This document shows positions 9,213 through 61,457 of a DNA stretch of 64,000 nt, one piece after another. The stretch's first letter is position 1. Every line of letters begins with the position of its first letter. Source of the DNA: Squalus acanthias (Eukaryota); NCBI GenBank assembly GCA_030390025.1, contig CM059432.1, forward strand, positions 67,830,001 to 67,894,000, given 5' to 3'. The position numbers and the translations under genes were made by a program. Under the pieces are notes generated by a model that ran no database searches, was not told where the DNA came from, and saw only the letters and a program-made list of their open reading frames with translations.

Positions 9213-12200
9213 ATGGCTCAACAGACCAGAGAAAGGGCTCCAAGATTCTCGGACGCAGCACTAGAGGCCTTAGTGCAGGGGATGGAGAGGAGGAGACAGG
9301 CTCTCTATCTGCAAGGGGCCAGGAGGCCGTCCTGGCACAAAATGTGAAGGCAATGGGAGTAGATAGCCGACGCAGTCAATGCCCCAAGGACATGGATGCA
9401 GTGCCGAAAGAAGTTCAATGACCTCACACGAGTGGTCAAGGTCAGTGAATGCATCTTCAAATGCCATCTCTCAGCAACTGCACCGCTAGCCTCACACTCT
9501 GCTCAATGCACCATACCCGCATCACTCACCTGCCAACAATCTATATCAATCATGTCTCAAACCTTACATTCATGGCTTCACCTCTCCCTCACACAGTTAC
9601 AACTGCAGCAAGCCTCACACCCACAGCTCACACCTTGCACACACTGCCAGCTATTCAACCATGACAGGCACATCACCCAAACACATTGCACAACACTCAC
9701 TGAAAAACTTCACTCTCCCTTGCAGGTCAAGGTGTCTAATAACTGCAGGCAGCAGCAGCTAACCGGCAGGGGATGGGCAAGCCTGCATATCCTTACCCAG
9801 CTGGAGGAGATGGTGCTCGACATTATTGGAGGGGGTGTCACTGAGGCTGTGACGAGCGGCGAGGCTGAAACCATTGAAGATGACAGTATGCTCATACCTA
9901 ATCTTCCTTCTCACATTCCATTTCCCCCTCATCTCACAATCTCTTCTCACTTACAAGCTGCTGATAGTATAAGCATGCACATTTTGCTTTCTCCCCTCCC
10001 CTCACCACAACCCTACCCTTGTGCCTTTCTCCTTTCAGATAGCCAAGAACTCCAACCTGGCTAGCCAGTGCAGGAAGAGCAACAGAAGAGTAATGGCGAA
10101 AAAGGGATAACGTCATTCAATCTCACACTCGCAGGCATTAGCTCAGATACTGACACTGCGTATACTTTAGAGGGTAGTATAGAGGCGGGATCTGCACGTA
10201 GAGAGTCACCGGGCACAAGTGGCCTGCAACCAGGGCAGGGAGAAAGAGTAGCCAGCTCCCCGGAGGGTGAGGTCACACATGAGTTCTGCTGCAGAGGACT
10301 CAGGTGAGGACTTTGATGGGGTAGCCTACAGAATATGGGTGATGGGCATGCACAAATAAATGCTTGGTGCATTGGCAGGCCTGCCAGAGAGCCTGTTGTC
10401 ACTGTCAAGGAGCATGGAGGATTTTGCACAGGGCTTTGCGCAGAGCTTGTGTGAAGGAATAAGCCATAAAACCTATTCAGAAAAATGCACCATTCTATGA
10501 AAGAATTATGGCCTTATTAAAACATGACAAACTGGGTTTGGAAATCTGGAAGCCTCAACAATCTAAAGCTGTGATAGCATTCTGGTTATAGAGATAAGAT
10601 AGTTGTTGACACTGAATCAATAACCTTATTGAAACAGAAGGTTAAACGCTCCTGATAGTCTGAATCTTTAGGAACAAACTATGGTTCACCCTGGTTAAGG
10701 TGTTCTAATTTACACTTCGTAAAGAGGCACAAACAGAAGGCCTTAGTAAAAATGACATTAAATAAAATGCACCTGCTGTTACACTGTTTTTTATGGTAAG
10801 CTCGGAACTCCTAGAGGAGAGACGCGATTCTTAATTACTACCAGCTGAGGTGACTAAGAATTGCATAGATCACCCTGGTTAAGGTGTTCTAATTTACACT
10901 TCGTAAAGAGGCACAAACAGAAGGCCTTAGTAAAAATGACATCAAATGAAATGCACCTGCTGTTACACCATTTTTTATGGTAAACTTGCTACCAGCTGAG
11001 GTGACAAAGAATTGCAGGGGTCAGCAGAAAAATGACTGGAGATAATTAGCTTACATCAGCAGAAAACCTTAAAGGAAATACCACTGAAAAAGGGTATAAA
11101 TATTGAACTCTCAAATGGGATAGTAGATTCGCTGTAAAGGGGCAAAGCGATTCTCAGGCTTCAGAGGCGGCTCTGTAAGTCTACAACTCTTTGTACCTCG
11201 GGGATCAAAGGTACTGTATTTGATTTTGGTGGATATCCTGAATAAACTTTAAGAACTGTAAAACTGTAGCGAAGTTAAGATTTGAGAGTAAGGATCTCTG
11301 ATAATAAGATTGTAAAGCTTTCTCTTTTTGGAACTGTTAATGTTGCGATTGACTCACCAATGGTAAATTACATGTCGGTTCTTTAATAAATCTATATATT
11401 TTTAGAATTGTCTCACATAATACTTCTGTATCAAACTCGCAAACTCAATCTCTGTACACTCTTTGGTGAGGAGTTGCAGAATTCTGGCGGAGTTTTCCGG
11501 ACCCTCATAATATCCGGAACATTACAGTCTAGCTAAACTTATTAAAAGTGCTATCTGGAGGACGGTAACATCTTCTGGTTGTTCCTTTCCTTTAGGGAGA
11601 GATAGTCTGGACCTTTAGAACCAATTAAGCGTCTTTAGGATTCGGCTACCTCAAACTTTAGTTGAAAGTGAACGTCTGAGGAATACGCCTGATCTGGGGT
11701 AGCCCTAAAGGGGCTAGGACTAGTAATTATCCCTTCACTTGGAGCCCATGATTTCCAGGATGGAAGTGATGGGCAACTCCATTAGCGCACTTGTGGACCC
11801 AATCATGATGCATGGTCTGATGGGCGATGTCTCAGCTTCCACAGCAGCACAAGCAGAAGCAACCCAATGTCTGGGTGCTGCAGTAGAAGCTCAGACTGCT
11901 GCCATCGTGGCTGGGTTTACCAGTGTTGAAAGGAGCTTGCAGGGTGTCACAGCAGTCCAGCAATCTGTCCTCCAATATATTATTAGGATTGCTGAGGCGC
12001 CGCCCCGGGGGAGTGGCAGTGGCTCCGTGGAGTATGAATCTGTAGTCCTCTCTCAGAATGACAGCAATCGTCCACTCTACCAATGCCCTAGCTGTTGCCT
12101 GTCAGCCAGCCAGCCCAGACTACTGCTGCTCATGCCGAGGTGGTGCAGTACGCTGCCGGGTCTTCTAGGCCCAGAACTGCTCGTGGTCATCCTGCAAGGC

Positions 12201-12499: not shown

Positions 12500-14700
12500 G
12501 GATAAATACAGAAAATGCTGGAATTACTCAGCAGGTCAGGCAGCATCTGTACAGAGAGAAACAGAGTTAACATTTCAGGTCGATGACCTTTCATCAAAAC
12601 TGGAAAAAGTTACATATGTAACAGGTTTTAAGCAAGTACAGAGGTGGAGAAAGTGGGGTGGGGGGAAGAAAGAACAAAAGGGAAGGTCTGTGATCGGGTG
12701 GAAGGCAGGAGAGATTGAATGACAAAAGGTATGATTGTACAAAGCAAAAGGAGATGCTAATGGGACAAGTAAAGAAACAAAAGATGAGCCTAGAAGGGGT
12801 GTAAATGAGAATAGCAGAATCATCAACAGCTGCTATCTGGAAAAAATAGGGCCAGAGGTTATGGTCTAAAATTGTTGAACTCAATGTGGAGTCCAGAAGG
12901 CTGTAAAGTGCCTAATCGAAAGATGAGGTGCTGTTCTTCGAGCTTATGTTGAGCTTCACTGGTACAGTGCAGAAGGCCGAGGACAGAGAGATCAGAGTGG
13001 GAGTAGGGCAGAGAATTGAAGTGACAGGTGACCGGTAGCTCAGGGTCATGCTTGCGGACTGAATGGAGGTGTTCCGCAAAGTGGTCACCCAATCTGTATT
13101 TTGTCTCCCCCATGTAGAGGAGACCGCATCGTGAGCAGCGAATACTGTATACTAAATTGAAAGAAATACAAGTAAATCGCTGTTTCACCTGGAAGGAGTG
13201 TCTGGGGCCCTGGACGGTGGGAAGGGAGGAGGTAAAAGAGCAGGTATTGCATCTCCTGTGCTTGCATGGGAAGGTACCGTGGGAAGAGGAGGGGTTGTTG
13301 GGGGTGATTGAGGAGTGGACCAGGATGTCGCGAAGGGAATGGTCCCTTCGGATTGGTGAAAGAGGAGGGGAGGGGAAGATGTGGTGAGATAACGCTGCAG
13401 GTGGTGGAAATGGCGAAGGATGATCAGTTGAATGTGCAGGCTGGTGGGGTAGAAGGTGAGGACAAGGGGGACCCTATTGTAGTTCTGGGAGGGAGGAGAA
13501 GGGGTGAAAGCAGAAGTGCAGGAAATGGAACAGACAAGGTCGTAGACCGTGTCAACCATGATGGCGGGAAATCGTCGTTTGAGGAAAAAGGAAGACCTAG
13601 CGGAAGCATTGGTAAGGAAGGTGGCATCATCAGAACAGGTGTGATGGAGACTGGGCTGGATTTTGTCTTGGGGTCGGGTTGGGGTTGTGTCATCCGCATT
13701 TCGTGTTCCCCACCTGACTCCAAATTAATGTGGATGAATGATGCAATTTTCACTTAATTGGGCAATTGAGTTCGAGCATGTGGGAATCCATGAACTAATT
13801 AGTGGTTTCAGTCTGAAAGTCGCCTCTGATGATGTCATCATTGCTGCTGCATTGCAGGTCAGAGACTGCCTGCCTGGTCTCAGAGACTGCCTGGATGTTG
13901 GTGAGAGAGGATGTGCCTGGCTTTTGCTGTGAGTGGACCTGGGGGGAGAAGAAGAAGAAGAAGAAGAAGAAGAAGAAGAAGAAAGAGAGAGAGGGGGAGA
14001 GAGAGAAATATTTTTTTGCATGCAAGTCCTCTCACAGCAAAGGCCATACAGTCTCTGAAGACATTCAATGCAGCAGTAATACTACCTTCATCACATCTCC
14101 ATTGTAATAGTGGACCTGCAGCTGATAGTCAGCTATCCACTTGTGCTCCTGCCAGGTTTCACTGGAGTGTTTCACACCAGGCGTACTTCACGTCGGAAAA
14201 GGGTTAAACTAGCTAAAATGTTTCAAAATGGCATTACCGAGCCAATTTAGGGCTTGTTAAGGGCTTTAATGGCCTCTCCCGCCTCTTGGAGGCGGGACGG
14301 AGTCGGGAACCCCGCGACTGATTTTGTCAAAATTGCGTGGAGGCGGGATGGAGTCGGGATGGGGTCGGGACCCCCGACCCCGCAACTTTAACCCCCACAC
14401 GCCTCCAAACCCGACTCCACGGGTCATTCAAAATCCAGCCCACGGAAACTGGGAGAATGGAATAGATTCCTTACACAAAGCGGGGTGGGAGGAAATGTAG
14501 TGAAGGTAGCTGTGGAAGTTAGTGGGCTTATAGTGGATATTGGTTGATAGCTTATCCTCAGAAACGGAGACAGAGGAGTCGAGGAAGGGAAGGGAAGAGC
14601 TGGAGATGGACCACGTGAAGGCGAGGAATGGGTGGAAATTGGAAGCAAAGAAGAGGAATTTTTCCAGTTTGGGGCGAGAGCAGGAAACAGCACTGATATA
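12500..14700 (-). mobile_element. Penelope-like retroelement fragment (GIY-YIG endonuclease), interrupted by a MITE
   Basis: ORF 12859-13188 NLVYSIRCSRCGLLYMGET...EH...LEEQHLIFRLGTLQPSGL; degenerate hammerhead near 12565-12600. Confidence 0.85.
13653..14441. mobile_element. Harbinger-type MITE with internal (GAA)n tract
   Basis: Perfect 13-bp TIR GGGCTGGATTTTG / CAAAATCCAGCCC, flanks ACT/ACG. Confidence 0.85.
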
Positions 14701-38900: not shown

Positions 38901-39624
38901 AAATTACGCCCCCACCGCCCGCCCCCGCCAATATCTTTCTTCGCACTATTCATTGAGAGAAGTAAAACTTGGTCTTGTTCAATGCAGAAATAATGCCTGC
39001 ATCAGCGGAGGGACTCTTTACCCTGTATTTCACCTGTACGTTGGAAGCTGTTTATTAAATGCAGTCAGAGAGCACTCACAGGCTGTTGCCAGGAAAAAGA
39101 TTTACTCACAAATGATACAGGTCCGTTAACATTTACTGCAAACCCGGACAGCTCACCCCTTGACACGGAGAGAGAACCAGCTCACCCACGTTTTTTGTCT
39201 TCACATCACGACGTTTTGTTTCCTATTGTGGTCTCTGTGCAGGATCAGTGCCACCTCAATGCTCTGAGTCAGGCAAGCTCAAGTCGAAGTATTTGAGTCA
39301 CTCTGTGCTCCTTACTGGGCATTGCTTTTAAAAACATTACCATTTCTATCTTTTAGAAGTTGATGATGTAATTGGAGGATAGTGCGCGTGAAGTGATGGG
39401 AGGTGACGGTGTTGCACAAGTGAAGGAGAGTGCGCAATTCACCAGTGGTGAGATCATAATCATGGTGCCACAACTCCTTTCACTAGAGGAACAGGGAAGG
39501 TGATCAACAGGCTCCTACAGCGTGCCCTATTTACACCAGTGGGTTTTCAAACTATTCTGTGTCTAAAATTTCCTGGAAATATTGGCTGGAAATTTTCTTG
39601 GAGCAACTCTTGCTCCCAGGGGCC

Positions 39625-40492
39625 CGCGGTAAATACTGGCACATTCCCGGGGACCCCCCAGTAAATACTGACACACTCCCAGGGACCCCCTGTAAATACT
39701 GACACACTCCCGGGGACCCCCCAGTAAATACTGACACACTCCCGGGGACCCCCCAGTAAATACTGACACACTCCCGGGGACCCCCCAGTAAATACTGACA
39801 CACTCCGGGGGACCTCTTGTAAATACTGACACACTCCCGGGGAGCCCCCTGTAAATACTGACACACTCCCGGCGACCCCCCAGTAAATACTGACACACTC
39901 ACGGGGACCCCTTGTAAATACTGACACACTCCCAGGGACCCCCCAGTAAATACTGACACACTCCCAGGGACCCCTTGTAAATACTGACACACTCCCAGGG
40001 ACCCCCCAGTAAATATTGACACACTCCCAGGGACCCCCCAGTAAATACTGACACACTCCCAGGGACCCCTTGTAAATACTGACACACTCCCAGGGGCCCC
40101 CTGTAAATACTGACACACTCCCGGGGACCCCCAGTAAATAATGACACACTCCCGGGGGCCCCCAGTAAATAATGACACTCTCCCGGGGACCTCCCAGTAA
40201 ATACAGACACACTCCCGAGCACCCCCTGTAAATACTGACACACTCCCATGAACCCCCTGCAAATATTGATACACTCCCAGGGACCCCCAGTAAATACTGA
40301 CACACTCTCAGGGACCCCCTGTAAATACAGACACACTCCTGGGGACCCCCTGTAAATACTGACATACTCCCAGGGACCCCCTGTAAATACTGACACAATC
40401 ACAGGGATCCCCTGTAAATACTGACACACTCCCAGGGACCCCCTGTATACACTGACACACTCCCAGAGACCACCTGTAAATATTGATACACA
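39625..40492. repeat. Minisatellite, 31-32 bp unit, about 27 copies
   Basis: Unit GTAAATACTGACACACTCCC(G/A)GGGACCCCC(C)(A/T), head to tail. Confidence 0.97.
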
Positions 40493-40882
40493 GTGTTGTA
40501 GCTGTTCCAGTACAGCTACAACACTGGCATCTATCCGACAATGTGGAAAACTGCCCAGGTAAGTCCTGTCCAGAAAAAGCAGGACAACTCCAACCCGGCC
40601 AATTCCCACCCCATCAGTCTACTCTCAATCATCAGCAAAGTGATGGAAGGTGTCATCGACAGTGCTATCAAGCAGCACTTACTCACCAATAACCTGCTCA
40701 CTGATGCCCAGTTTGGGTTCCACCAAGACCACTCGGCTCCCGACCTCATTACAGCCTTGGACGAAACATGGACATAGGAGCTGAATTCCAGAGGTGAGGT
40801 GAGAGTGACTGCCCTTGACATCAAGGCTGCATTTGACCAAGTGTGGCATCAAGAGCCCTAGTAAAACTGAAGTCAATGGGAA
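40493..40882 (+). mobile_element. RT fragment of the second LINE family
   Basis: WKTAQVSPVQKK...PISLLSIISKVME...QFGF...LDIKAAFD. Confidence 0.85.
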
Positions 40883-43385: not shown

Positions 43386-45258
43386 CTACTTTTTGCCCTT
43401 CGAGGGTGATCTCCTTCCCTTGCGCACTTCCCCCCTTCTAATCCTACTGCTCCTCCGTAATGGGACCTCAGTGGCTGCAGCAAGGCTGGTGGAAGGCTGC
43501 TGATCTTTAGACCCTGACACTGCAGATGCCCCTGAAGGACGGCCTCGACCAGTTCTGGGCCTGGAGGGCCCGGCTGCAGACTGCACCAACTCTGCATGGG
43601 CGGCAGCAGTCTGTCCTACAGGCGGTGGCAAGTGCAGTGGAGAAGTGACAGTGTTGGCAGCAGGAATGCTGTCATCGTGAGAGAGGACAGCAACTCCCTG
43701 CTCGCCCGACACACTGGCACTCCCACGGGGCAGCACTTCAGCATCCGGAGCAATCTGCTGGAGCACAGATTGCTGGCCTGCTGCGGCGCGGTGACAGCCC
43801 CGGGGACATGTGAATGAACCATCGAGGTTGGCAGCAGTCAGTGCTCGCGTGGCCTCAATCTGAGTCTGCATGAGAGCAGTCAGAGATGGGATCACGGCAG
43901 TCAGTGACTGAATTGCAGCACTAAGTGTTAGTGTGGCATCCGCCTGTGCTACAGCGAAGTGCTCCACACTCCTTGCCAGTGACTCAATTCATTCGGGCAC
44001 CCTTCCCACTGCACCCATGAGCTCAGTGTGCATGCCCACCGCCTGGGTGTTCATTTCTGCGATCAGCTGCTCCTCCTCTGCGTCCATTGCAGTAGGAGTG
44101 TCTGGCATACTCTCCCTCTGGGGAGAAAGCCCCCGTTCTTCCCTACCCCCATGGTGTTGCTGCAGCCTGCTGGGTCCTGGAGCTTCACCCTCATCAGACC
44201 CATCCCCCTGCTCCCCTCCAGGGAAGGCGTGTTCCCAGTGTGGGCATGGGCTTCCTCGGAAGAGGGTGGCACTGATGCTCCGGCTTCCTCTTCCTCCTCG
44301 GCTGCAGCTTCACTCCCACTGGCAGCTTCAGGGCCCGTCTCCTCAGCTGATGAATCACCATCTGAAAGCAGGGAGGTACAAGAGTGGCTTTAGCGTGAGG
44401 ACCAGGGGGCAGTAAGGGAGGAATAAGTGCAGCGAGTTAGCAAGTTGGATTGAAAGTGTCAAAGGCTGGTGTTGTGAGGGACAAGTGGAAGGACAGAGGA
44501 CAAAAAGGTGATGACCTTACCATTGCTGTCCACAACGGGGTCGGCGTCTCCAGTGGCGACGGGACCGATCACCCGGCTTGCCACAATCCTGTGGACGCGC
44601 TCCTCAAGATCGCTGAGGGGTTGCAGCTGAGGCCGCCCTCCACCTGTCCGTTGCTGCTGTCTCCTATTATGCGCCAGCTTGGCCTGCAAGAAAAAGGACA
44701 GCATCTGAGTAAATATACAGCCATGGTCTTGCCTGATGTGCCTCCCATAGGTGAGTAGCCCTTACTGTATACAGCCATGGTCTTGCCTGATGTGCCTCCC
44801 ATAGGTGAATAGCCCTTACTGTATGCAGCCATGGTCTTGCCTGATGTGCCTCCCATAGGTGAATAGCCCTTACTGTATGAAAAGTGTGGAATGTGTGTGT
44901 GTGTTTCATGAAAGGGCCATAGGTGTTGGATGAGTGTTGTGCATTGGGGTTTCAAGACCCTCTGGCCATAGAGTGAGGTTGAGATGGAGGGATGGAGAGG
45001 TATTGAGAAAAAGCCACACACCCTGACGACCCGAGTGAGGTCGTTGAACTTTTTGCGGCATTGAACATGGGTCCTGGGCACCATGCTCCTGGAGGAGATG
45101 CTCTGAGCCACCTCCCTCCACACTCTTCTGTACTCGCATGGCAAAGGCCTCCTGCCACTCTCAGGGAAGAGTATACATCTTCTGCGCTCCACCGTGCCAA
45201 CCAGAGCATCCAAGGCCCGCTCGGTGAAGCGCTGAGCTCGTTCTCTCACCCTCTCCAT
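43386..45258 (-). pseudogene. Three-exon Harbinger Myb/SANT-like gene
   Basis: Exons 45258-45022, 44683-44521 and 44361-43386 with phase-compatible GT-AG introns. RAQRFTERALDALV...VWREVA...QCRKKFNDL. Exon 3 has one frameshift and one stop. Confidence 0.82.
44716..44877. repeat. 54-bp tandem repeat x3 in intron 1 of the Myb gene
   Basis: CAGCCATGGTCTTGCCTGATG recurs at 44718, 44772 and 44826. Confidence 0.95.
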
Positions 45259-45619
45259 CCTTGGCAGCAAAATGGATTCACAGGTCTCTCCAGGCCGAGA
45301 TTCAAGGCTGCAATGAGCAGGGTGTGGCTGGGGAGCAAGTTGCCCCCCCCCCGCTTTAAGAACTGGCCAGCGCCAGTGTGTATGTGTTCCCTCGCTAACT
45401 GGTAGCACCTGCGCTGCGCTTGCGCGCTGAGTTAGCACCTCACTGCTCGGCCTTTGCGCCTTAAGACAGGTGTGCAGCGCCTGATTTAGCGCTCCACTCA
45501 CCTCCCGGGGCAGTAAAAGTGAAGTTTCCAGTCAGTGGCGATAATTAGCGCCAGGCGCTAATATTTGTGTCCAGACGATATTTGCGCCCCAAACGGGGCG
45601 CGACCTAATTTTTCCCCCT

Positions 45620-49013: not shown

Positions 49014-50225
49014 CTTGATGCTACCTACGGACACCTACGGACGCTGAAAAACGCCCTCGTAAGAACGGGATATGACGCTCGACTCATCGATCGACAGTTC
49101 TGACGGGCCACAGCGAAAAATCGCATAGACCTCCTCAGAAGGCAAACACGGGACACAACCAACAGGGTACCCTACGTCGTCCAGTATTTCCCCGGAGCGG
49201 AGAAACTACGCCATGTTCTTCGCAGCCTTCAACATGTCATCGATGACGACAAACACCTCGCTAAGGCCATCCCCACGCCTCCACTACTTGCCTTCAAACA
49301 GCCGCCTAACCTCAGAAGTACCATCGTTCGCAGCAAATTACCCAGCTTTCAGGATAACAGCGACCACGACACCACACAACCCTGCCATGGCAAACTCTGC
49401 AAGACATGCCAGATCATCAACACAGATACCACCATCACACGTGAGGACACTACCCACCAGGTACATGGTACATACTCATGTGACTCGGCCAACGTTGTCT
49501 ACCTCATACGTTGCAGGAAAGAATGCACCGCGGCATGGTACATCGGCGAGACCATGCAGACACTGAGACAACGTATGAACGAGCACCGCGCAACAATCGC
49601 CAGGCAGGATTGTTACCTCCCAGTCGGGGAACACTTCAGCAGTCAAGGACATTCAGCCTCGGATCTGCGGGTAAGCGTTCTCCAAGGCAACCTTAGAAAC
49701 ACACGACAACGCAAAATCATCGAGCAGAAACTGATAGCCAAGTTCCGCACTCATGAAGACGGTCTCAACCGGGATCTTGGGTTTATGTCACGATACATGA
49801 CGTGATCCGGACTCGAGTCATCGTTGGCTTGTTCACAGATGTGATTCCCAGTAAAAAAGTAAAAATTTTCCCAGTAAAAAAGTAAAAATTTTAAAGCTTT
49901 TCGTTTTACATACAGACGGCAGCTTTTGACACGTTAGAACCCCTGCGACTACACCTCATTGTCTCAGTTGTATCTTGCTATGTCTTTGATGTGGTACCTT
50001 CCTGGCTGACTTGATTAACTTTATCACACCTCGGCAGATAGTCAGGATGATTTAATTTAGTGGTCTGCAATTGTAAGGTACACATGCTTTGTTCTCTATC
50101 TATATATGCTTTGGCGATTCTGTATCTAATTTACTTCACCTGAGGAAGGAGCAATCGATAGCTCCGAAAGCTTGTGATTTCAAATAAAACTGTTGGACTA
50201 TAACCTGGTGTTGTGCGACCTCTCA
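49014..50225 (+). mobile_element. Penelope-like retroelement, 5'-truncated (GIY-YIG)
   Basis: NVVYLIRC...WYIGETMQTLRQRMNEH...GLNRDLG; 13-bp TSD ATAACTGTAGTAA at 49001-49013 and 50226-50238. Confidence 0.9.
50136..50177 (+). ncRNA. Minimal type I hammerhead ribozyme
   Basis: tcac-CTGAGGA-aggagc...gctcc-GAAA-gctt-gtga at the 3' end of the Penelope-like element. Confidence 0.75.
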
Positions 50226-52084
50226 ATAACTGTAGTAAGACATCCTTGCTCCTGTACTTAAATCCTCTTGCAATGAAGCCCAACATACCATTTGCCTTCC
50301 TAACTGCTTGCTGCACCTGCATGTTTGCTTTCAGTGACTGGTGTACAAGGACACCCAGGTCCCTTTGTACATCAACATTTCCCAATCTATCACCATTTAA
50401 ATAATACTCTGCCTTTCTGTTTTTCCTACCAAAGTGGATAACTTCACATTTATCCACGTTATACTGCATCTGCCATGTATTTGCCCACTCACTCAAATTG
50501 TCTAAATCGCTTTGAAGCCTCTTTGCACCCTCCTCACAACTCACAATCCCACCTAGTTTTGTGTCGTCAGCAAACTTGGAAATATTACATTTGGTTCCCT
50601 CATCCAAATCATTGATATATATTGTGAATAGCTGGGGCCCAAGCACTGATCCCTGCGGTACCCCACTAGTTACCACCTGCCACCCCGAAAAAGACCCATT
50701 TATTCCTACTCTCTGTTTCCTGTCTGTTAACCAATTTTCAATCCATGCCAGTATATTACCCCAATCCCATGTGCTTTAATTGTGCACACTAACCTCTTAT
50801 GTGGGACTTTATCAAAGGCCTTCTTAAAATCCAAATACACCACATCCACTACCATGTTGACTTTGTCTAATCCCGTTGATATTTTCTAAGTATCCTGTTA
50901 TCACATCCTTTATAATAGACTCTAGCATTTTCCCTACTACTGATTTTCGGCTTGGTAGTTCCCTGTTTTCTCTCTTCCTCCTTTTTTAAATAATGGGGTT
51001 GCATTTGCCACCCTCCAATCTGCAGGAACTGTTCCATAATCTATAGAATTTTGGAAGATGACAACCAATGCATCCACTATTTCCATGGCTACCTCTTTTA
51101 GTACTCTGGGATGCAGATTATCAGGCCCTGGGGATTTTTTGGCTTTTAGTCCCATTAATTTCTCCAGCACTATTTTTTTACTAATACTAATTTCCTTTAA
51201 TTCCTCCTTCTCACTAGACCCTTGGTTCCCTAGCATTTCTGGGAAGTTATTTGTGTCCTCTTCCATGAAGACAGAACCAAAGTATTTGTTTAACTGCTCT
51301 GCCATTTCCTTGTTCCCCATTATAAATTCTCCCGTTTCTGACTGTAAGGGATCTACATTTGTCTTCACTAATCTTTTTCTTTTTACATACTTGTAGAAGC
51401 TTTTACAGTCCACTTTTATGTTCCTTGCAAGTTTACTCTCATACTCTATTTTTCCCCTCTTAATCAATCTCTTGGTCCTTTTTTGTTGAATTCTAAACTG
51501 CTCCCAATCCTCAGGCTTGCTACTTTTTCTGACAACTTTATATGACTCCTCTTTGGATCTAATACTATCCTTAATTTCTTTTGTTAGCCATTGTTGGGCC
51601 GCTTTTCCTTTTGTGTTTTTGCGCCAGAAAGGAATGTATAACTGTTGCAATTCATGCATAAGTTCCTTAAATGTTAACCATTGCCTATCCACCGTCATGC
51701 CTTTTAATGAAGCTCCCCAACCTATCATCACCAACTCCCTCCTCATACCTTTGTAGTTTCCTTTGTTTAGATTTAGGACCCTAGTTTCAGATTGGATTAC
51801 TTCACTTTCCATCTTAATGAAGAATTCTATCATGTTATGGTCACTCTTCCCTAAAGGACCCTGCACAACAAGATTATTAATTAACTCCTTCTCATTGCAC
51901 AATACCCAATCTAGGATAGCCTGTTCCCTAGTTGGCTCCTCAATGTACTGGTCTAAAAAACCATCTCGTACACACTCCAGGAATTCATCCTCCACAGTAT
52001 TATTGCTAATTTGGTTTGGCCAGTCTATATGTAGATTAAAGTCACCCATGATTACCGTAGTACCCTTGTTACATGCATCTCTAA

Positions 52085-53500
52085 TGTAAAATTCGCAATT
52101 ATCGCGATTCGAAATAACAAGATAGAAGCAGATTTGTTTGATCAGTTTATTTAAACGAAATGCTGTCATGATATAAAGGACACAGAAGCCTGTAAAATGG
52201 CCACCGAGCATCGTGGCAGAAGCTTCCAGAATACAGTGGGCAGACAAGATAGCGTTCGAATAAACATTTCAGTATAAGATTGGATAATACTCGGCAAACA
52301 TTGATAAAGACAGGATGCAACCTGTTTGCATTTGTGACAATAGCAAAGATATAAGTGCTGGAATCGTTTTCCATGCACAAATAAGGACCATTGTACTGGG
52401 CAATCGAAGGCCCATCCAGATACATCAATACGCAAATTCCCCACGGCTCTACAATGAGAGAGCCATTCTCGGGTGATTAAGTCAGTATTCGAGGAGGCCC
52501 CAAAACCAGTCAGGGAGACTCCTAGCCGGTTCGACAATGGGGAAAACATTAACGGATAGTTGGCCAGTTTAAGGTGCTACCGAAACCCATTAAAGGAAAG
52601 AATCGCCCCATGCTGGGAGTTTTGTGCACCAGTATTACACAAATGACAAACATTAAGATTTGAGCGGGAGATAAGGGAACCCAGCACTATAACTATAGAA
52701 AACAAATGTCCATCGGTCTCTTGACTGTTTTATCTCGCTGATGACTGCTGAACTTTTATTCTCCTATTCTGATCCTCGGGTATCGCTCTGCTGGACGAGC
52801 AGCTTTTTGTTTTTCTCTGGATTCTGTTGACTATGTTGGGTGGAGCTCGAACGGAACGAGTCGCCTCGACGAAGGCCAGTGACCGGGTGCACCATCCCAC
52901 GAGTTGGTAAACGGTGTTTGGACACGAAGGCCCGAAGAAGACGAGACGAGATGAGAAGAAGAGGAGAAGAAGTGGTGTACAGAGACCCCTCCAAACACGT
53001 GACAGTCAGGTGCTGCAGCGAAACGAACCGAGTGCCTCGTTTAAAATTCTCCGAAGTATCACGAGTGGTGAGCATGTTTCCCGATCCTACAAATCTAGAC
53101 ATAGTGTAGGTATTGATAGGGGAGGGTGGTTTTATTAAGGATAAATATAATGTGTTCCCCTTTTTACAATGTGCCGTGCGTTCTTCATTACCATAGACCA
53201 AGCTTTATGAATGTATGTATACTTGTACTATCGTTAATTTGTGCCTATGACATGTACTTCATGATTTTGGACGTTATGCAATAAAGATTTCCATTTCGTA
53301 CTATTCAACCGGGTCTATTTGAGTTTTTCTCTGCATTACTGCTCTCGCACCTAAGTCCAGTGTTAGAACCGTAAGGGCGAGTGGGTCGAACCACTCACAA
53401 GTGCTTATTGCAACAAGGCTGGCCGGAGACCAGAGCAAGCAATAGTATTAGGCAACGAAGGCCTAACTCCGTACAAGCACCCCGTACCGAACCCCTTACA
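52085..53500 (+). repeat. 5' LTR
   Basis: Direct repeat of 59433-60848 with about 25 substitutions by manual count; AATAAA at 53280. Confidence 0.97.
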
Positions 53501-53504
53501 GAAA

Positions 53505-55286
53505 ATGGCGACCACGAAAGGAGGCTGGCAGCGAGAGAGTAATGTTTTAGACCCTGGTGTGAATAGGCGAAATGTGATGGATGAGAGGGTAGCCGACTAT
53601 GTGTTTGGGAAGGTGGATAAGTGACCTGCTGATGGATAAGCGTCTGCTAGACGCAGCCATCAAATGGACAGACAGTAAAGAGCATAAGAAGTCGGCAGAG
53701 AAAGCGGTCTGGCTGATGTGCTACAAGAAGCAAGTCCAACTTTCGGACCAGGTCATTGTGGCACAGGCAGCTCAGATCAGGGAATTGGGAGTTGAGATGG
53801 AGGAAAAGGTCACGGGAGGACAGAAACTCATCGCATCCTTGAATGCGTTACATCAGGAACGCCAGATAGTAGCCAACCACCATGAGGCTAAAATAGATTA
53901 CCTAGAGTGTCAGATCACGGAAGTGAAGTTAAACGAGGGTAGGATTAGAGAACGGTGTGCCCGCCAACTACCCAGATAAGAGCCCAAGAAGAAAGCTTGA
54001 AGGGAGTTAGGGCGGCATATAAGATGGCCCTCGAAGATAAGCATGAGGGAGCCGACCACAGTGTTTGCCAGAAGGAGATAGGGAACCTAAGAGAGGCCCT
54101 GAATAAGGCAAACGGCATGGTGTGCCTAATCAGCCCGTCAGCACACCAGCCACAGGTGGGTAGGGAATTCCCAAAATCCCTACCAGACAAAGCAGAGGAG
54201 GTATTTGCTACTGCACCCTCCGCGCCACCCAGCTATTCGGCAACCTGGGTAAGGAAGGAAGTGGTGGAAATAGAAGAGGAGGTCCCTGAGGTAGGACAAT
54301 CCCCAGAGGTAGTGTCGAAGCCGGGACCGTTGTGTCCGCTTACAGGTCACAAGAGGGGCCCGAACGGAGAAAATGGGGAGCACGGGGATGTCCTGAACCA
54401 GCTTGTGTTGCCTCACAGCTCACACCAGCTGAGAGCGATGATTAGTCATGTACAGAAGCTGTCTGAGTCAGACGACCCTTCCGTACACTTCAGGGAGGCA
54501 GAACAGACTGCAGCAATTAATGGCTGCGACGATGCGGAAAAGACTAAAATGTTGCTGTTCTCGTTAGATAGCTCGATCCTTCAGTGTCTCTCAGATGAGA
54601 GCAAGAGGGGAAATAATACCTATGAGAGGTTAAGGGATGAGGTCCTAGAAGTGTTGGGGGCGGACAACGAAGGTCCGTTCGTTAGATTGGGTCAGACAGT
54701 TGAGATGGAGGGAGAACCCCCGAAGGTTTTCGCCGACAGGCTGTGGCCAGTATACCAGCGTAGCTGCCCAGGTGCGCCAGCGCGCGCCTATTTGGACGGC
54801 GTCGGTTTAACTCATTGGCTCAGGTGTTTAGTAGCCAACAGTTTGCCAGCCGTCAGGGAGCAGGCCAAAGCGTGGTTTGATCCCACTAACCCCGCCACAA
54901 CAGTGGAGTCGGTCCTAAATCGACTCACGATAGGGTATCGGAACACTAGGAGCACGGGAGCGCGTCCCCTTAAGGGAAAGGTGCATGAGGCACGGCCCGC
55001 AGCCCCGGCTCAAAAGGAGTGGCATCAGGAGGGTAACTGCGCCCCGCAAGCCAGTGGTGCTTGTTACGGGTGCGGGAAGACAGGTCACTGGCGTAAGAAC
55101 TGTAGGAACCCCTGGAAGGACCCCAGGGATAAAAATCCCGCAGCCCGAACCCAAGCGCCTGTCTCTGAGAGAGGAGCTGGTGTGCCTATCCATCCCGATG
55201 CGATAGAATCAATGTTAGGAGCCATGCGGTCTCTCATGATTTCGCACGGGAAGGTAGCAACAGCCCCATACAACCCAGACTTCTGA
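53505..55286 (+). pseudogene. gag: Gag: coiled-coil N-terminus, capsid-like domain, CCHC zinc knuckle; two apparent frameshifts (~53615, ~53967)
   Basis: CYGCGKTGHWRKNC at 55062-55103 and an MHR-like segment EGEPPKVFADRL. Open pieces 53505-53624, 53599-53979 and 53955-55286. Confidence 0.85.
53506..53523 (+). promoter_or_regulatory. Primer-binding site, probably tRNA-Arg(TCG)
   Basis: TGGCGACCACGAAAGGAG versus the recalled vertebrate tRNA-Arg complement TGGCGACCACGAAGGGAC (16/18); 5 nt downstream of the LTR. Confidence 0.8.
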
Positions 55287-56366
55287 CTGGAACCGGTGCA
55301 GCCTGCCTACCTGTGTCCCCTTGAAAGACGCGCACAGGAGGGGGTCTCCTGTAAGGAGGCCAGGTTAAAAGAGCAGGCCTTACGGGAGGAGAACGCCCGT
55401 TTAATGGGGAAAGTAGACGGGCTAGAAGGGCAGCTTAGAGACATAAAAGCAGCCTACAGGGTAGCCAGGAGCAGGGAGTATGAGGATTTAAAACAGAATA
55501 GAAATCTGCAGCCTCCAGCAGGCGAGATTTCACAGAATGCACAAGCAGGGGCGGTGGCCTGTCTTAGGGGAGGGGCCAGACCTGCGAGTGGGGACTCTCA
55601 GCCCCAAGCAGGACAGCAGGGCACACAGACCGGTAAAGCAGCCTGTTTGAGGGGAGAGGACATTCTAGAAAAGTGTAGGATCTTTTCTTGGGGTTGGGAT
55701 TCCGATGAGGAAGAGCTCGAGGAGCTCGACCAAGATAGTGACCCGATCGGAGAGGTGCTGAGATCGGAGGACGAAAGGTTTGTCCTCGACTCAAGCTTAG
55801 GGGAAATAGGGATTGCGAGTGGAGATCCACACAGGGTGGAATCAGAAACTGCAGGTCCCGAGCCCAGGGGGACGGAGCTAGGGGAGACGGAGCCAGCGGC
55901 TGTGGTAGGACCACAGGTCGTGACAGTGGAAGTCTCGGAACCCGGTCCGTCAGCCTTGGAAGTCTTGCCCTTGGGGGAGGTAGGGATTGTGAGTGGAGGA
56001 CCACATACTGGGCCAAGTAGGGTGGTACCAGAAACTGCAAATCCCGAGTTCAGGGAGGCGGAGCCAGGGGAGACGGAGCCGGCGGCTGTGGTAGGACCGC
56101 AGGCCGTGACGGTGGAAGTCTCGGTACCCGGTCCGTCGGCCCTGGAAACCTTGTCCAATGTAGCCCTCCGTAGGTCAGGTCGGACACCCCAGCCCAGGAA
56201 GGCGTGGTCAAGTCCCCCGTACGCCCCCAGGCGTAAGTTCAAGGTCAAGGCAGCCCAGGGAGATCCCAGTCCCAGCGCAGCAGCGACAGGCTGCGGCAGA
56301 TCAAAGGAAGGGGTCAGTGCCCTCCCACCACTGGGAAAAGCTCGTGGCAGCCTTCGCAGAATTTAG
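55287..56366 (+). CDS. Unknown ORF in frame with gag after a single TGA (coiled coil, acidic tract, internal repeat, basic tail)
   Basis: 359 open codons directly after the gag stop; no protease, RT, RNase H or integrase catalytic motifs. Confidence 0.6.
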   Translation: MEPVQPAYLCPLERRAQEGVSCKEARLKEQALREENARLMGKVDGLEGQLRDIKAAYRVARSREYEDLKQNRNLQPPAGEISQNAQAGAVACLRGGARPASGDSQPQAGQQGTQTGKAACLRGEDILEKCRIFSWGWDSDEEELEELDQDSDPIGEVLRSEDERFVLDSSLGEIGIASGDPHRVESETAGPEPRGTELGETEPAAVVGPQVVTVEVSEPGPSALEVLPLGEVGIVSGGPHTGPSRVVPETANPEFREAEPGETEPAAVVGPQAVTVEVSVPGPSALETLSNVALRRSGRTPQPRKAWSSPPYAPRRKFKVKAAQGDPSPSAAATGCGRSKEGVSALPPLGKARGSLRRI

Positions 56367-56647
56367 GTAGGCCGCCCTGGGAACGGGCGGCGCTGTACAG
56401 TTTATAAGTTTAGGAGAAGTTTATAAGTTTAAGTTTATAGGTTTTAAATCAGGTTAAGTTTGTAGTTTAATTTTAACAGAAAATGGTATAAATGATGGGA
56501 GTTAGAGATAGGAATGGTTAAAGTCTATCCAGCATACATGTCGTTATACGTGAGATGAGGTCAAGGGACCCGCTCACCCTTCACAAAAACCAGAGACTCT
56601 TGGGAGGCTGGCTACATCATTTTATCTGATCACAGGAACCAGGAAAG

Positions 56648-58998
56648 ATGGAACGGATTCTGATAGGGCTCGCAGCGATCGGATATGGATTGGCCTATCA
56701 GGGCCTCACCAAGGATGTCGTTGTGTTTGGTTGCTCCGGGGACACGGCCCCCATCGCGACGGATGGGACCGGGAAGCGAAAGGCTGAGGAGACCGCCACC
56801 TATTTCCACAAGGGAAGGTGGCCGGGATGGCTGGGAACAAATTCAACGGAATACTCCAGTGCATCGGGATTTGCCTACAAAGAGACTTCTTTACTGTGCC
56901 CCAGAGTGAGGACCATTGCACCCAGACTCAGCGTCACCGTCGGCAAAAGGATTTGTTTGACATACAATGGGAAGGTCCCATTGAGCCGATGGTGGTGGTT
57001 ACGGAAGTTAAGCAAGAATATGAGAAATTTCTCGGTTGAGTGGGAGCGATTGGGTAACAAAACCCATCGGACAATTACGGGGACTAACGGACAATTGAAA
57101 GTCTGTTGGGACAAATGGTGGGAACCAGATGAGGGAATATATGTTTGTATGTGGGGATCGAAGTACGTTTGCCCCAAGGGTATATCCATATTTTTCGTAA
57201 ACCAGTGGCAGGATAACGGGAAAGGGATGAGGTGGGATGTCAGCACCAGGGGGTACGGAGCTCCATACTCCCCGATCCCGGTAAACGCCACTGAACTCAT
57301 CACGCGCCCACGCAAGGCCCCGCCCACGATTCCGGTGGTTTTGGCTCAGGAGGAAGGGTGCCCTAAAACCACTAAGGGGCCCGGGAATGGTTTGGTACTG
57401 GTCCCAACAGACCAGCTACTATTTGAAGGGGTACATTACGCGGTGGCCTCGGTAATTTTAAATCTCACCGAGGTGCGGTTGCCAGAGTGGTGCCCCAAAG
57501 AGACGGAACAATTGTACCAGGTCCTGTTGACAAACATGTTTAGACAATTCTACGAGTTTGATTTTGCAGAGATTGACAAAACATGCTTGTACACCACACC
57601 ACACGAAGTTTTGGGTCGGGTAGGGAGACAAAGGAGGGGCATTGTGAACGATATGTTCACCGCCTTTAATACAGGAACATCTGTGGTCAACGCTCTAGAC
57701 AACGTGGAGCTGCAGACCCAGATCAATGGTTTAAAAACACAATTAAAAAGCATCCTCACAAGCGAAAACAAGGTAGTAGGGTCTGAGTTACATGAGGACC
57801 AGGCCATGACGCTACACTTAAAGGAAATTATAGCAGAGCTGGAGAAGCATGCGAGAACGGTAAATGCCCTGATTAGGGAAGATCGGAATGCATCCGATCA
57901 AGCTGCGCAGAACGAGGTGTGCGTACTATACGGGGCGTTGTTACTGGGCGAGGGCCGCAGTAATTTGGAGGATTTAAAACAAGGTTTGGTCCCGTCCTGG
58001 ATAAGTAACAAACACCTGCAGACGCTCCACCCTTTTCAGAACGCATTAAGCCCGTGCCAGCTCAGGCTAGCCTCAGAGGCGTACCCTGTCCCCGTGGACT
58101 GCGGACGGTCAAACCATACCATCATGGGTATAGTATTACGTATGCCGGTTTTGGGCGACACAGCAAAGCCCGCCCCGGTGTATCGGGTAGAGAACATTGG
58201 TGTCATTCAGGGGGGAGCCCACATTCGCTATGCAGCGGTCCCACCTTACGTCATCCGCTGGGAGCAAACGATGACAGGTACCGATCTCTCAGGTTGTCGT
58301 GGCAGGGAGCACACATAATCCTGTGTCCCCAGCACTTGAATGCCTTTTTAACACCACAATGCGGGTTCAGAACGGCTGGCGCCAAGCCCATGAATTGCAC
58401 CATGGAGGCAATGACACAAGATCATGTGCCTCCACAGGTGGCATACATAGGGGGTGGAACATATTGCGTTACCACTGCAGCGCAACACTACCAGCATGGA
58501 AACCGCAGCCGGTGTCCGGTGAGTGACAGCAGTTTCTGTTTTAAACCCAGGGCTGAAGTTCAAGTGGCACAGCAGCGAATTGTCCCGATCCCTGAACCAT
58601 CCACTGTTCATCTAACAGTAAAAGAGAATTTCACCGACTTGCAGCGATTCGTTGCGCATTTCGGATACATCATTCCCCCTCTCCCTGAACACCTCACCAA
58701 GCTTTTGAAAGCCGTCGCGGTATCGCGAAAACATTTTTACACCCTAGAACAAAAGACTGTCGAGATAGGGACAGAAATTCTAGACATAGTAATCCCACCG
58801 TGGTGGGACCTGTTCACCAATATTGAAGTGCCTTCATGGATCAGAATAGCCTCCCACATTTTAGTTGTGTGCCAAGCAATAATTGTAGTGTACCTATTGG
58901 TCGTGCACTGCAAGAGAGGCAAGCGCCTCACAAAGCAGGAGAACACAGGAGAGTGGAGAGAACGTTACGTGCACGTGCACGAGGAAAGCGCCGCGTAA
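56648..58998 (+). pseudogene. env: Envelope / class I fusion glycoprotein (F-protein-like), one frameshift at ~58312
   Basis: Signal peptide, NxS/T sites, furin site RQRR (57626-57637), fusion-peptide-like segment and heptad repeat, Cys-rich region, C-terminal TM helix and short basic tail. Confidence 0.88.
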
Positions 58999-59420
58999 AC
59001 GGCCAGGATGACGCCGCTCCATTTTACCATGTGTGTTCTTGTAATTGATTGTTAGTTATGAAGATATGTAACCAAGTTGGGAACTTTGTATTTTAAAAGA
59101 GTTGTTTTTGATTATTTTTAACTTTTGTATTTTTAAAATGGTTGTTTGATTATTTTTTCCTTGCATAATAAAATACATATACAGGTGGTGCGAGAGGCAT
59201 CGGCCTATTGCACCTGGAAGACGTATACGCGATGTAAGTTTAAAAGGCAATACTGCCTACGGTTTTGTCCAAGTTTAAACAATGTATTTTTCTCTGGGAA
59301 ATGAGGACGGCATGGAGACCATAGATAGTTTAAGTTCAGGGAGTGTTTGGATGTGGAGAATCGGGATAATTTTGCTCACCACCACTTTTAATTGATACGA
59401 TAAGCGGAGTTATTCGCATC

Positions 59421-59432
59421 AACAGGAGGGAC
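59421..59432 (+). promoter_or_regulatory. Polypurine tract
   Basis: AACAGGAGGGAC directly before the 3' LTR. Confidence 0.75.
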
Positions 59433-60848
59433 TGTAAGATTCGCAATTATCGCGATTCAAAATAACAAGATAGAAGCAGATTCGTTTGATCAGTTTATTT
59501 AAACGAAATGCTGTCATGATATAAAGGACACAGAAGCCTGTAAAATGGCCGCCGAGCATCGTGGCAGAAGCTTCCAGAATACAGTGGGCAGACAAGATGG
59601 CGTTCGAATAAACATTTCAGTATAAGATTGGATAATACTCGGCAAACATTGATAAAGACAGGATGCAACCTGTTTGCATTTGTGACAATAGCAAAGATAT
59701 AAGTGCTGGAATCGTTTTCCATGCACAAGTAAGGACCATTGTACTGGGCAATCGAAGGCCCATCCAGATACATCAATACGCAAATTCCCCACGGCTCTAC
59801 AATGAGAGAGCCATTCTCGGGTGATTAAGTCAGTATTCGAGGAGGCCCCAAAACCAGTCAGGGAGATTCCTAGCTGGTTCGACAATGGGGAAAACATTAA
59901 CGGATAGTTGGCCAGTTTAAGGTGCTACCGAAACCCATTAAAGGAAAGAATCGCCCCATGCTGGGAGTTTTGTGCACCAGTATTACACAAATGACAAACA
60001 TTAAGATTTGAGCGGGAGATAAGGGAACCCAGCACTATAACTATAGAAAACAAATGTCCATCGGTCTCTTGACTGTTTTATCTCGCTGATGACTGCTGAA
60101 CTTTTATTCTCCTATTCTGATCCTCGGGTATCGCTCTGCTGGACGAGCAGCTTTTTGTTTTTCTCTGGACTCTGTTGACTATGTTGGGTGGAGCTCGAAC
60201 GGAACGAGTCGCCTCGACGAAGGCCAGTGACCGGGTGCACCATCCCGAGAGTCGGTAAACGGTGTTTGGACCCGAAGGCCTGAAGAAGACGAGACGAGAC
60301 GAGAAGAAGAGGAGAAGAAGTGATGTACAGAGACCCCTCCAAACACGTGACAGTCAGGTGCTGCAGCGAAACGAACCGAGTGCCTCGTTTAAAATTCTCC
60401 AAAGTATCACAAGTGGTGAGCATGTTTCCCGATCCTACAAATCTAGACGTAGTGTAGGTATTGATAGGGGAGGGTGGTTTTATTAAGGATAAATATAATG
60501 TGTTCCCCTTTTTACAATGTGCCGTGCGTTCTTCATTACCATAGACCAAGCTTTATGAATGTATGTATACTTGTACTATCGTTAATTTGTGCCTATGACA
60601 TGTACTTCATGATTTTGGATGTTATGCAATAAAGATTTCCATTTCGTACTATTCAACCGGGTCTATTTGAGTTTTTCTCTGCATTACTGCTCTCGCACCT
60701 AAGTCCAGTGTTAGAACCGTAAGGGCGAGTGGGTCGAACCACTCACAAGTGCTTATTGCAACAAGGCTGGCAGGAGACCAGTGCAAGCAATAGTATTAGG
60801 CAACGAAGGCCTAACCCCGTACAAGCACCCTGAACCGAACCCCTTACA
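59433..60848 (+). repeat. 3' LTR
   Basis: TGTAAG...CTTACA followed by TSD CTAA. Confidence 0.97.
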
Positions 60849-61457
60849 CTAATTTCCTGTTTGATGTCGTCCCCTACATTACCACTACTGTTTGGAGGCC
60901 TATAGACAACTCCCACTAATGTTTCCTGCCCCTTGGTGCTTCTTAGCTCCACCCAGACTGATTCTACATCTTGATTTTCTGAGCCAATATCCTTTCTCAC
61001 TATTGCTCTGATTTCATCCTTTACTAACAACGCCACTCCACCTACTTTTCCTTTTTGCCTGTCCTTCCTAAATATCGAATATCCTTGGATATTCAACTCC
61101 CAGCCTTGGTCACCCTGCAGCCATGTCTCCGTAATCGCAATTATATCGTATCCATTTACATCTATTTGCGCTGTTAATTCTTCTACCTTATTACGAATGC
61201 TTCGTGCCTGATAGAAAAACCCGGGAGAGTAACAATACATTAATACCCTTGTGATCCAAACTGGATATGCTTGTCTTTTGAAAGTGTACTTTATTAATTA
61301 CCCCAAAATGGACCAAGCAAACATTTGGTGAGACAAGGCCAGATATGAATCATTAAGATGCTTTAACTCACAGTAAAGTGAACATACAGAACAGCTGTTT
61401 TGGCCAGGCTCACTCAATTCAATCTGTGCAATTTATTTTTGTGTATTAATACAAATC

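Follow-up and report, generated by a model that had tools for sequence, protein, structure and literature searches.

What becomes of a retroviral readthrough stop when the enzymes behind it are gone? Stop-codon readthrough in retroviruses normally rations these enzymes. The question is raised by a provirus in the genome of Squalus acanthias (assembly GCA_030390025.1, contig CM059432.1, forward strand, positions 67,830,001 to 67,894,000; the whole stretch of 64,000 nucleotides is termed the window, and coordinates are counted from its first letter). The element analysed is a single provirus at 52085-60848, about 8.8 kb long and bounded by two 1416-bp long terminal repeats (LTRs) with TG...CA ends. 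No protease, reverse transcriptase or integrase motif was found in its three forward frames. The gag frame (53949-55286) ends with TTC TGA (55284-55286), is followed by CTG GAA and then stays open for 359 codons (55287-56366), an open reading frame (ORF) designated ORF X. Our preferred reading, to which we assign a probability of about 0.52, is that the element has inherited a gag-pol readthrough junction from which a minor Gag-X fusion protein is now made; this protein would be under selection and act in cis like that of the mouse IAP 1Δ1 elements. By analogy with related viruses, the gag stop very probably descends from a gag-pol readthrough junction; with less assurance, we infer that it is probably still read through.

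The junction and the 359 open codons behind it, on which the original prediction was built, are a straightforward reading of the sequence. The other two forward frames across ORF X carry 20 and 14 stops, and a stop-free frame appeared in none of 5000 dinucleotide shuffles of X (longest run 255, mean 12.6 stops). Among the 78 TGA trinucleotides of the internal region, only one is followed by CT[AG], namely the gag stop, while base composition predicts 2.4%. The claim that X lacks an early ATG proved correct only in part: X has a single methionine, yet its in-frame ATG sits at codon 40 (55404, U at -3, G at +4) and could start a 320-codon product. It is also true that X is uninterrupted in this copy while gag has two breaks in its 5' part and env one near 58300. 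However, with three breaks in the approximately 4.1 kb that gag and env make up together, about 0.8 would be expected in the 1.08 kb of X, so that an intact X would be met with a chance of about 46%. Intactness in this single copy is weak evidence, and stronger evidence comes from other copies.

Parts of the element were found in 20 sequencing runs with seven organism labels, and contigs from four of these (X1, X12, X14 and X11; three labels) were compared. The contigs were aligned to 53150-57000 at 80% likeness and covered all 30 bins in all four runs; differences refer to the 40 best-supported of 687 rows and indels to those listed, and depth is not a copy number. Many distinct contigs were present in every one of the four runs, which identifies a multi-copy lineage. 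No difference at 55284-55289 occurs among the 40 best-supported rows in the four runs. The neighbouring positions 55295 and 55297 are among these rows, with contigs extending 20-47 letters to either side and thus past the stop in all four runs. Changes private to this copy, such as the one at 55330, show at approximately 100%, and nothing of this kind is listed for the stop. A nonsense mutation confined to this copy is thereby excluded, although minor variants may be present among the lower-ranked rows.

ORF X varies in length among copies, and it does so in frame. The fully sized variants comprise -3 (all four runs), -6 (X14 and probably X12), +39 (X12 and X14), +69 within the coiled coil described below (X1 and X11) and -171 (X12). 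All five are multiples of three, across three organism labels, compared with one of the 11 listed LTR or intergenic indels (Fisher p 0.0014, the two counts being taken from two different tables). A further 35 indel rows lie outside these listings. Three joints of 234, 287 and 253 nt with unknown letters in between were left out of this count; the 234-nt joint is in frame and the 253-nt joint (X1, low depth) removes the X stop. In one X11 contig, which carries another organism label, the end of X is unchanged in position but another stop codon is used, and some contigs that differ at as many as 37 positions over 242 nt span X without gaps. We thus state that the stop is a feature of the family and that the frame of X is kept, open and in register with gag, in other copies. 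As a separate observation, the copies in X1 and X11 have an in-frame 69-nt tandem duplication inside the X coiled coil (55371-55438).

The position of the stop was also compared with that in related Gag proteins. A search of 1.8 billion representatives returned 25 matches; the best two near-full-length ones are P0001 (619 residues, 49% identity) and P0003 (628 residues, 36%). Past the CCHC box, Gag extends for 68 residues in P0001, 64 in P0003 and 60 in the element studied here. These Gags end at the same place, and the stop is therefore the normal Gag end in the lineage. No Gag relative with a longer fusion was found by the search, which is weak evidence, and no relative of the element was found in metagenome and viral contigs. 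A model of Gag built from 19 aligned sequences (pLDDT 69.9; a single-sequence model with pLDDT 38 was not used) has the murine leukaemia virus (MLV) capsid 6hwx as its best fold match (E 2.3e-4), and an N-terminal coiled coil is present in both the model and the Gag relatives.

Regarding the ancestry of the junction, the original prediction had invoked gamma- and epsilonretroviruses. This analogy was misplaced: these viruses use UAG for gag-pol readthrough, as stated in a 2026 review of readthrough in animal viruses (PMC13517186), while the stop is UGA here, and the right comparators are the lokiretroviruses. The same review defines the type II readthrough motif as UGACUA or UGACGG, gives UGACUD/UGACGV as the alphavirus range and lists UGACUG, the hexamer found here, as an alphavirus variant present in Trocara virus. 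The supplement of PMC7947760 contains 24 lokiretrovirus pol entries; the labels of ten indicate a gag-pol fusion, and in the other 14 pol is listed separately. Eight of these 14 were viewed, and one begins at pol, which left seven junctions to be counted by eye. In all seven (Bsp, Pyo, Ofa, Sau, Dcl, Lro and Cne) the gag frame ends with UGA CUA, and in six of them the annotated pol is in frame with gag, no further stop intervening. For Bsp, the gag frame contains the conserved pol leader, but the annotated ORF is given in another frame; for Cne, no gag is annotated in the part of the supplement that was viewed. The junctions of Ofa, Sau and Cne continue as UGACUAGGC, a motif that PMC13517186 gives for human OPRL1. 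The words 'readthrough', 'stop codon' and 'frameshift' do not occur in the main text of PMC7947760 as far as covered, nor does 'loki' in the portion of PMC13517186 covered. Likewise, a full-text literature search, whose scope excluded most subscription papers, returned no paper joining 'lokiretrovirus' with 'readthrough' and nothing on this element.

The affinity to lokiretroviruses is suggested by the layout of Gag and by Env motifs seen by eye, reverse transcriptase being absent. The cleavage motif and a fusion subunit of about 452 codons in the element's Env would fit, and its motif GP..G..L matches lokiretrovirus Env N-termini by eye; by sequence, Env had no match to PF00523 or to an F protein in the PDB when compared with F proteins of Mononegavirales. 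Relatives of env that are 68-76% identical stem from skate and sawshark. The element is best read as non-autonomous, a gag-X-env derivative from a family of lokiretrovirus-like proviruses in cartilaginous fishes. Two further observations concern Env and the relatives. The N-terminal part of env (56900-57170) is immunoglobulin (Ig)-like, with a Pfam Ig_3 match of E 0.0027 in relative P0029 and weak CRTAM matches (E 0.3) with the env profile. In the relatives P0031, P0032, P0012, P0021 and P0009, gene models join env or gag pieces by splicing to host genes (Niban-like, zinc-finger) or to one another, and these models are probably annotation artefacts of a high-copy family.

What does the frame behind the stop encode? 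ORF X as a whole had no protein relative among 8000 candidates, no Pfam family below E 0.1 and only Atlas matches below 0.9. Its residues 14-67, however, match the coiled coil of the Gag relatives P0003 (E 2e-4), P0021, P0002, P0001 and P0011, in register at one motif, and in pairwise alignments to five Gag relatives only 0-3 of 1000 shuffles equalled the score of X. On a profile made from seven Gag coiled-coil stretches, X residues 22-66 scored 23.7 bits and reversed X 4.7, and none of 2000 shuffles reached the X score (maxima 9.4 and 12.6). Other coiled coils scored at most 10.1 on this profile. Of the Gag homologues held out from it, two reached 26.6 and 31.1, and a third, P0017, scored -5.4 with composition correction. 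Judged by this sequence similarity, X residues 22-66 are a Gag-type coiled coil, the second copy within the element, and X is therefore not the mere low-complexity extension it had been taken for. Recent duplication from the element's own gag was considered as a source and is not supported: the DNA likeness is at chance level, 170 of 500 shuffles being as good, so that the piece is either old or derived from a relative. Downstream of the coiled coil, X is acidic, contains two in-frame 138-nt repeats and ends in a basic tail. The motif RRS.R, which we take to be a mark of Pol tails, occurs five times in the three forward frames and is of no use in tracing the origin of this tail.

The features of the provirus, all on the plus strand, are as follows.
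52081-52084, plus: target-site duplication CTAA, left copy; the insertion splits a CR1-like long interspersed nuclear element (LINE), with LINE frames on both flanks.
52085-53500, plus: 5' LTR, 1416 bp, TG...CA, with a single donor-like site at 53371.
53506-53523, plus: primer-binding site, presumably of tRNA-Arg type; the gag ATG at 53505 overlaps it.
53505-55286, plus: gag, with N-terminal coiled coil, capsid and one CCHC knuckle; two breaks in the 5' part.
55284-55289, plus: putative readthrough junction, the gag stop in UGA CUG, read from the sequence and family-level by relatives and contigs.
55287-56366, plus: ORF X, 359 codons in the gag frame, with no homologue as a whole in databases.
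55300-55337, plus: pyrimidine-rich stretch and candidate splice acceptor (AG 55327 rank 2 of 537, CAG 55337 rank 75), within a modest hairpin.
55350-55484, plus: X residues 22-66, apparent homologue of the distal Gag coiled coil by BLAST and profile score.
55404-55406, plus: sole in-frame ATG of X, codon 40.
55833-56156, plus: two in-frame 138-nt repeat units (55833-55970 and 56019-56156), 86% identical, located in the central part of X, which is acidic and rich in Pro, Glu and Val.
56160-56363, plus: basic low-complexity tail of X, whose origin as an integrase tail is not established.
56610-56635, plus: likely env splice acceptor, CAG ending at 56635, rank 7 of 537 AGs.
56648-58998, plus: env, with an RQRR cleavage motif followed by about 452 codons to the stop, a weak Ig-like N-terminal domain and one break.
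59422-59432, plus: polypurine tract.
59433-60848, plus: 3' LTR, 1416 bp, 98.2% identical to the 5' LTR.
60849-60852, plus: target-site duplication CTAA, right copy.

The LTR pair differs at 25 positions (98.2% identity), and the copy is young. The gag ATG lies 5 nt behind the LTR, overlapping the primer-binding site, and its frame is that of the 3' part of gag and of X. Just 3' of the X stop, an AT-rich short tandem array of AGTTTATA units (56399-56445) varies in length among copies. Elsewhere in the window, CR1-like LINE fragments are abundant, and a minisatellite at 39550-40620 is built from 31-32-nt units and, on the minus strand, contains long open frames. Frames with 'CRKKFNDL' (9363-10064, 43386-43988 and 44569-45531) are presumably Myb/SANT-like proteins of Harbinger-type transposons, and those at 49104-49805 and 12859-13473 seem to us to resemble GIY-YIG endonuclease tails of Penelope-like elements.

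The preferred reading, a selected Gag-X fusion made at an inherited junction, can be put as a sequence of steps. The ancestor would have made Gag-Pol by reading through a UGA-CU stop, as suggested by the lokiretrovirus junctions. The enzyme domains were lost, and the Pol slot is now taken by an in-frame chimera, which opens with a short leader, continues with another copy of the Gag coiled coil and finishes in a long disordered tail. Ribosomes may still pass UGA CUG at a low rate and thus produce a minor Gag-X protein, which could join the Gag shell via its Gag part and the extra coiled coil. By analogy with IAP 1Δ1, Gag-X might favour its own RNA when enzymes are borrowed from helper relatives, and selection on Gag-X would hold the frame open while length and sequence drift. 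The original prediction that the junction was kept while Pol was replaced stands in part. It agrees with the family-level stop, with X being in frame, with the lack of any Pol motif and with the UGA CUA of lokiretroviruses; the in-frame ATG and the pyrimidine-rich acceptor candidate nevertheless allow a route to X that bypasses readthrough. In a more general form, which is tentative and in our view rather unlikely to hold as a whole, lokiretroviruses and their relatives in cartilaginous fishes would be a large and so far unreported group using type II UGA-CU readthrough for Gag-Pol. A pol-less satellite lineage would re-use the signal to dose, at Pol-like stoichiometry, a new structural protein made of Gag, a second Gag coiled coil and a disordered tail, taking the Gag-Pol slot in helper-made particles and biasing packaging towards its own RNA.

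Several observations speak against a selected Gag-X fusion or soften the evidence for it. With UGA CUG, the hexamer is not one of the canonical forms UGA CUA and UGA CGG, although it lies inside the UGACUD range, and the junction count does not extend to ten of the 24 lokiretrovirus consensus sequences, in which gag-pol is labelled as a single gene. The -171 variant of X rests on one contig at a depth under 5, and the 287-nt joint (one contig, depth 5) is not a multiple of three. Constraint on the amino acids of X is not evident: 7 of its 14 listed differences are synonymous versus 33% expected (p 0.15), which is no significant synonymous excess, and of the codons that distinguish the two 138-nt repeat units, 11 are non-synonymous and 5 synonymous. 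For gag, 8 of 18 listed differences are synonymous (p 0.17). The similarity of X to the Gag coiled coil is qualified by the pairwise alignment to P0003, in which reversed X scored 71 and X itself 70, and by the choice of the profile segments after the BLAST matches were known. Finally, folding the RNA downstream of the stop, as had been proposed, revealed no unusual stimulatory structure. The 120 nt from the stop fold with an ordinary z-score of -1.18 and 55295-55435 with one of -1.66; windows starting 20-40 nt 3' of the stop reach about -3 (40 shuffles), but the best nearby 100-nt window ranks only 9th of 146 across the element.

In principle, the conserved frame can also be explained by other functions of readthrough, by another route to X or by no function at all. 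First among these alternatives, though unlikely, is that the frame is kept for the sake of the RNA: low readthrough would shield the long gag RNA from nonsense-mediated decay, and the X peptide would be filler. At levels of 1-5%, readthrough is able to inhibit decay, with an effect that varies with how long the downstream frame is (PMC5360307), and such a role would agree with a frame that is kept while its length and residues drift. However, an env region of approximately 3 kb still follows the X stop, so the gain in protection may be small, and the Gag coiled coil at the front of X is left unexplained.

Also unlikely is that X is a separate accessory gene, its in-frame position being merely inherited. 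Its RNA would be spliced, with 55327 or 55337 as the acceptor, and translation would begin at the ATG at 55404. Foamy viruses make Pol from spliced RNA. When the 537 AGs are ranked by their upstream pyrimidines, the one at 55327 comes second and the env acceptor seventh, the context of the gag stop resembles the branch-point motif (presumed consensus), and the in-frame ATG with its G at +4 follows the acceptor candidates. On the other hand, this ATG has U at -3 and would cut the coiled-coil homology (X residues 22-66), the best acceptor AG is an AAG, and under splicing inheritance alone would have to account for the frame, for the UGA-CU context and for the 39 codons that are open ahead of the ATG. 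The contigs cannot decide the matter: none of their 11 listed joints has GT..AG ends (two runs are guessed to be RNA), and not even the env splice appears among them, so that they are uninformative on splicing and expression.

The third alternative, improbable in our judgement, takes X for a functionless remnant of an in-frame founder rearrangement in a young family, its frame persisting by descent under little or no selection. The high identity of the LTRs and the lack of a significant synonymous excess in X would fit such a history, and the triplet-periodic repeats may favour in-frame slippage. Contigs that cross X without gaps despite their many differences, and length changes that all stay in frame under three organism labels, argue against such a remnant. 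Very improbable is the last alternative, a single long gag-X frame in which the TGA arose as a nonsense mutation of this copy only. The copy does have other private breaks, but Gag relatives end at the same place and the stop lacks a near-100% difference row.

An enzyme-less lineage in which the stop has stayed leaky and the frame behind it open would be a case of a recoding signal put to new use, serving either a new minor capsid-associated protein or the shielding of RNA from decay. Hundreds of natural copies make such re-use testable by counting. The in-frame UGA CUA junctions of lokiretroviruses add a retroviral lineage to type II readthrough. New are these junctions and the evidence for frame conservation across runs; helper-dependent proviruses with a novel in-frame fusion frame are already known from IAP 1Δ1.

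Among the systems with which the element can be compared, gamma- and epsilonretroviruses share the in-frame stop behind the zinc knuckle (PMC13517186). They differ in using UAG, with a pseudoknot in Moloney MLV, and in leading into protease, while the element has UGA and no protease motif; three relatives of these viruses from fish and frog have UGA followed by AGA, CGA or AGU, again leading into protease (PMC13517186). Alphavirus type II readthrough agrees in the stop and the next codon (UGACUD; PMC13517186), but in contrast to alphaviruses the element shows no outstanding extended stem-loop and its downstream product is not a polymerase. Closer are the lokiretroviruses (PMC7947760), which share the layout LTR-gag-(pol)-env, a coiled coil before an MLV-like capsid, an Env with an RXKR-type cleavage site and, by eye, the GP..G..L motif, and a gag that ends in UGA CU and is followed in register by the next frame. 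The element deviates from them in lacking pol, in having a CCHC knuckle, in UGA CUG and in the additional Ig-like head of env; cartilaginous fishes are not listed among the lokiretrovirus hosts in the covered part of PMC7947760, and lokiretrovirus Pol has only a short tail after integrase in 21 of 23 entries there. With LTRs, gag and env but no pol, the element is at most a pol-less derivative of a lokiretrovirus. Another recently active lokiretrovirus relative without pol is zebrafish BHIKHARI Bik-1 (bioRxiv 10.1101/2024.03.25.586437), whose Gag of 617 residues has an N-terminal coiled coil and compares with 619 and 628 residues for P0001 and P0003; Bik-1 has a single ORF and no env, and no frame behind the stop is described in the covered part of the preprint. 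The closest parallel to the proposed function is mouse IAP 1Δ1 (PMC6466679), which is likewise non-autonomous and multi-copy and in which the loss of pol left a novel in-frame fusion frame. Its fusion protein works in cis, and the success of these elements in reaching high copy numbers is linked to it (PMC6466679). In IAP 1Δ1, gag and pol were fused by a deletion, with neither stop nor env, whereas the element described here keeps both its gag stop and its env.

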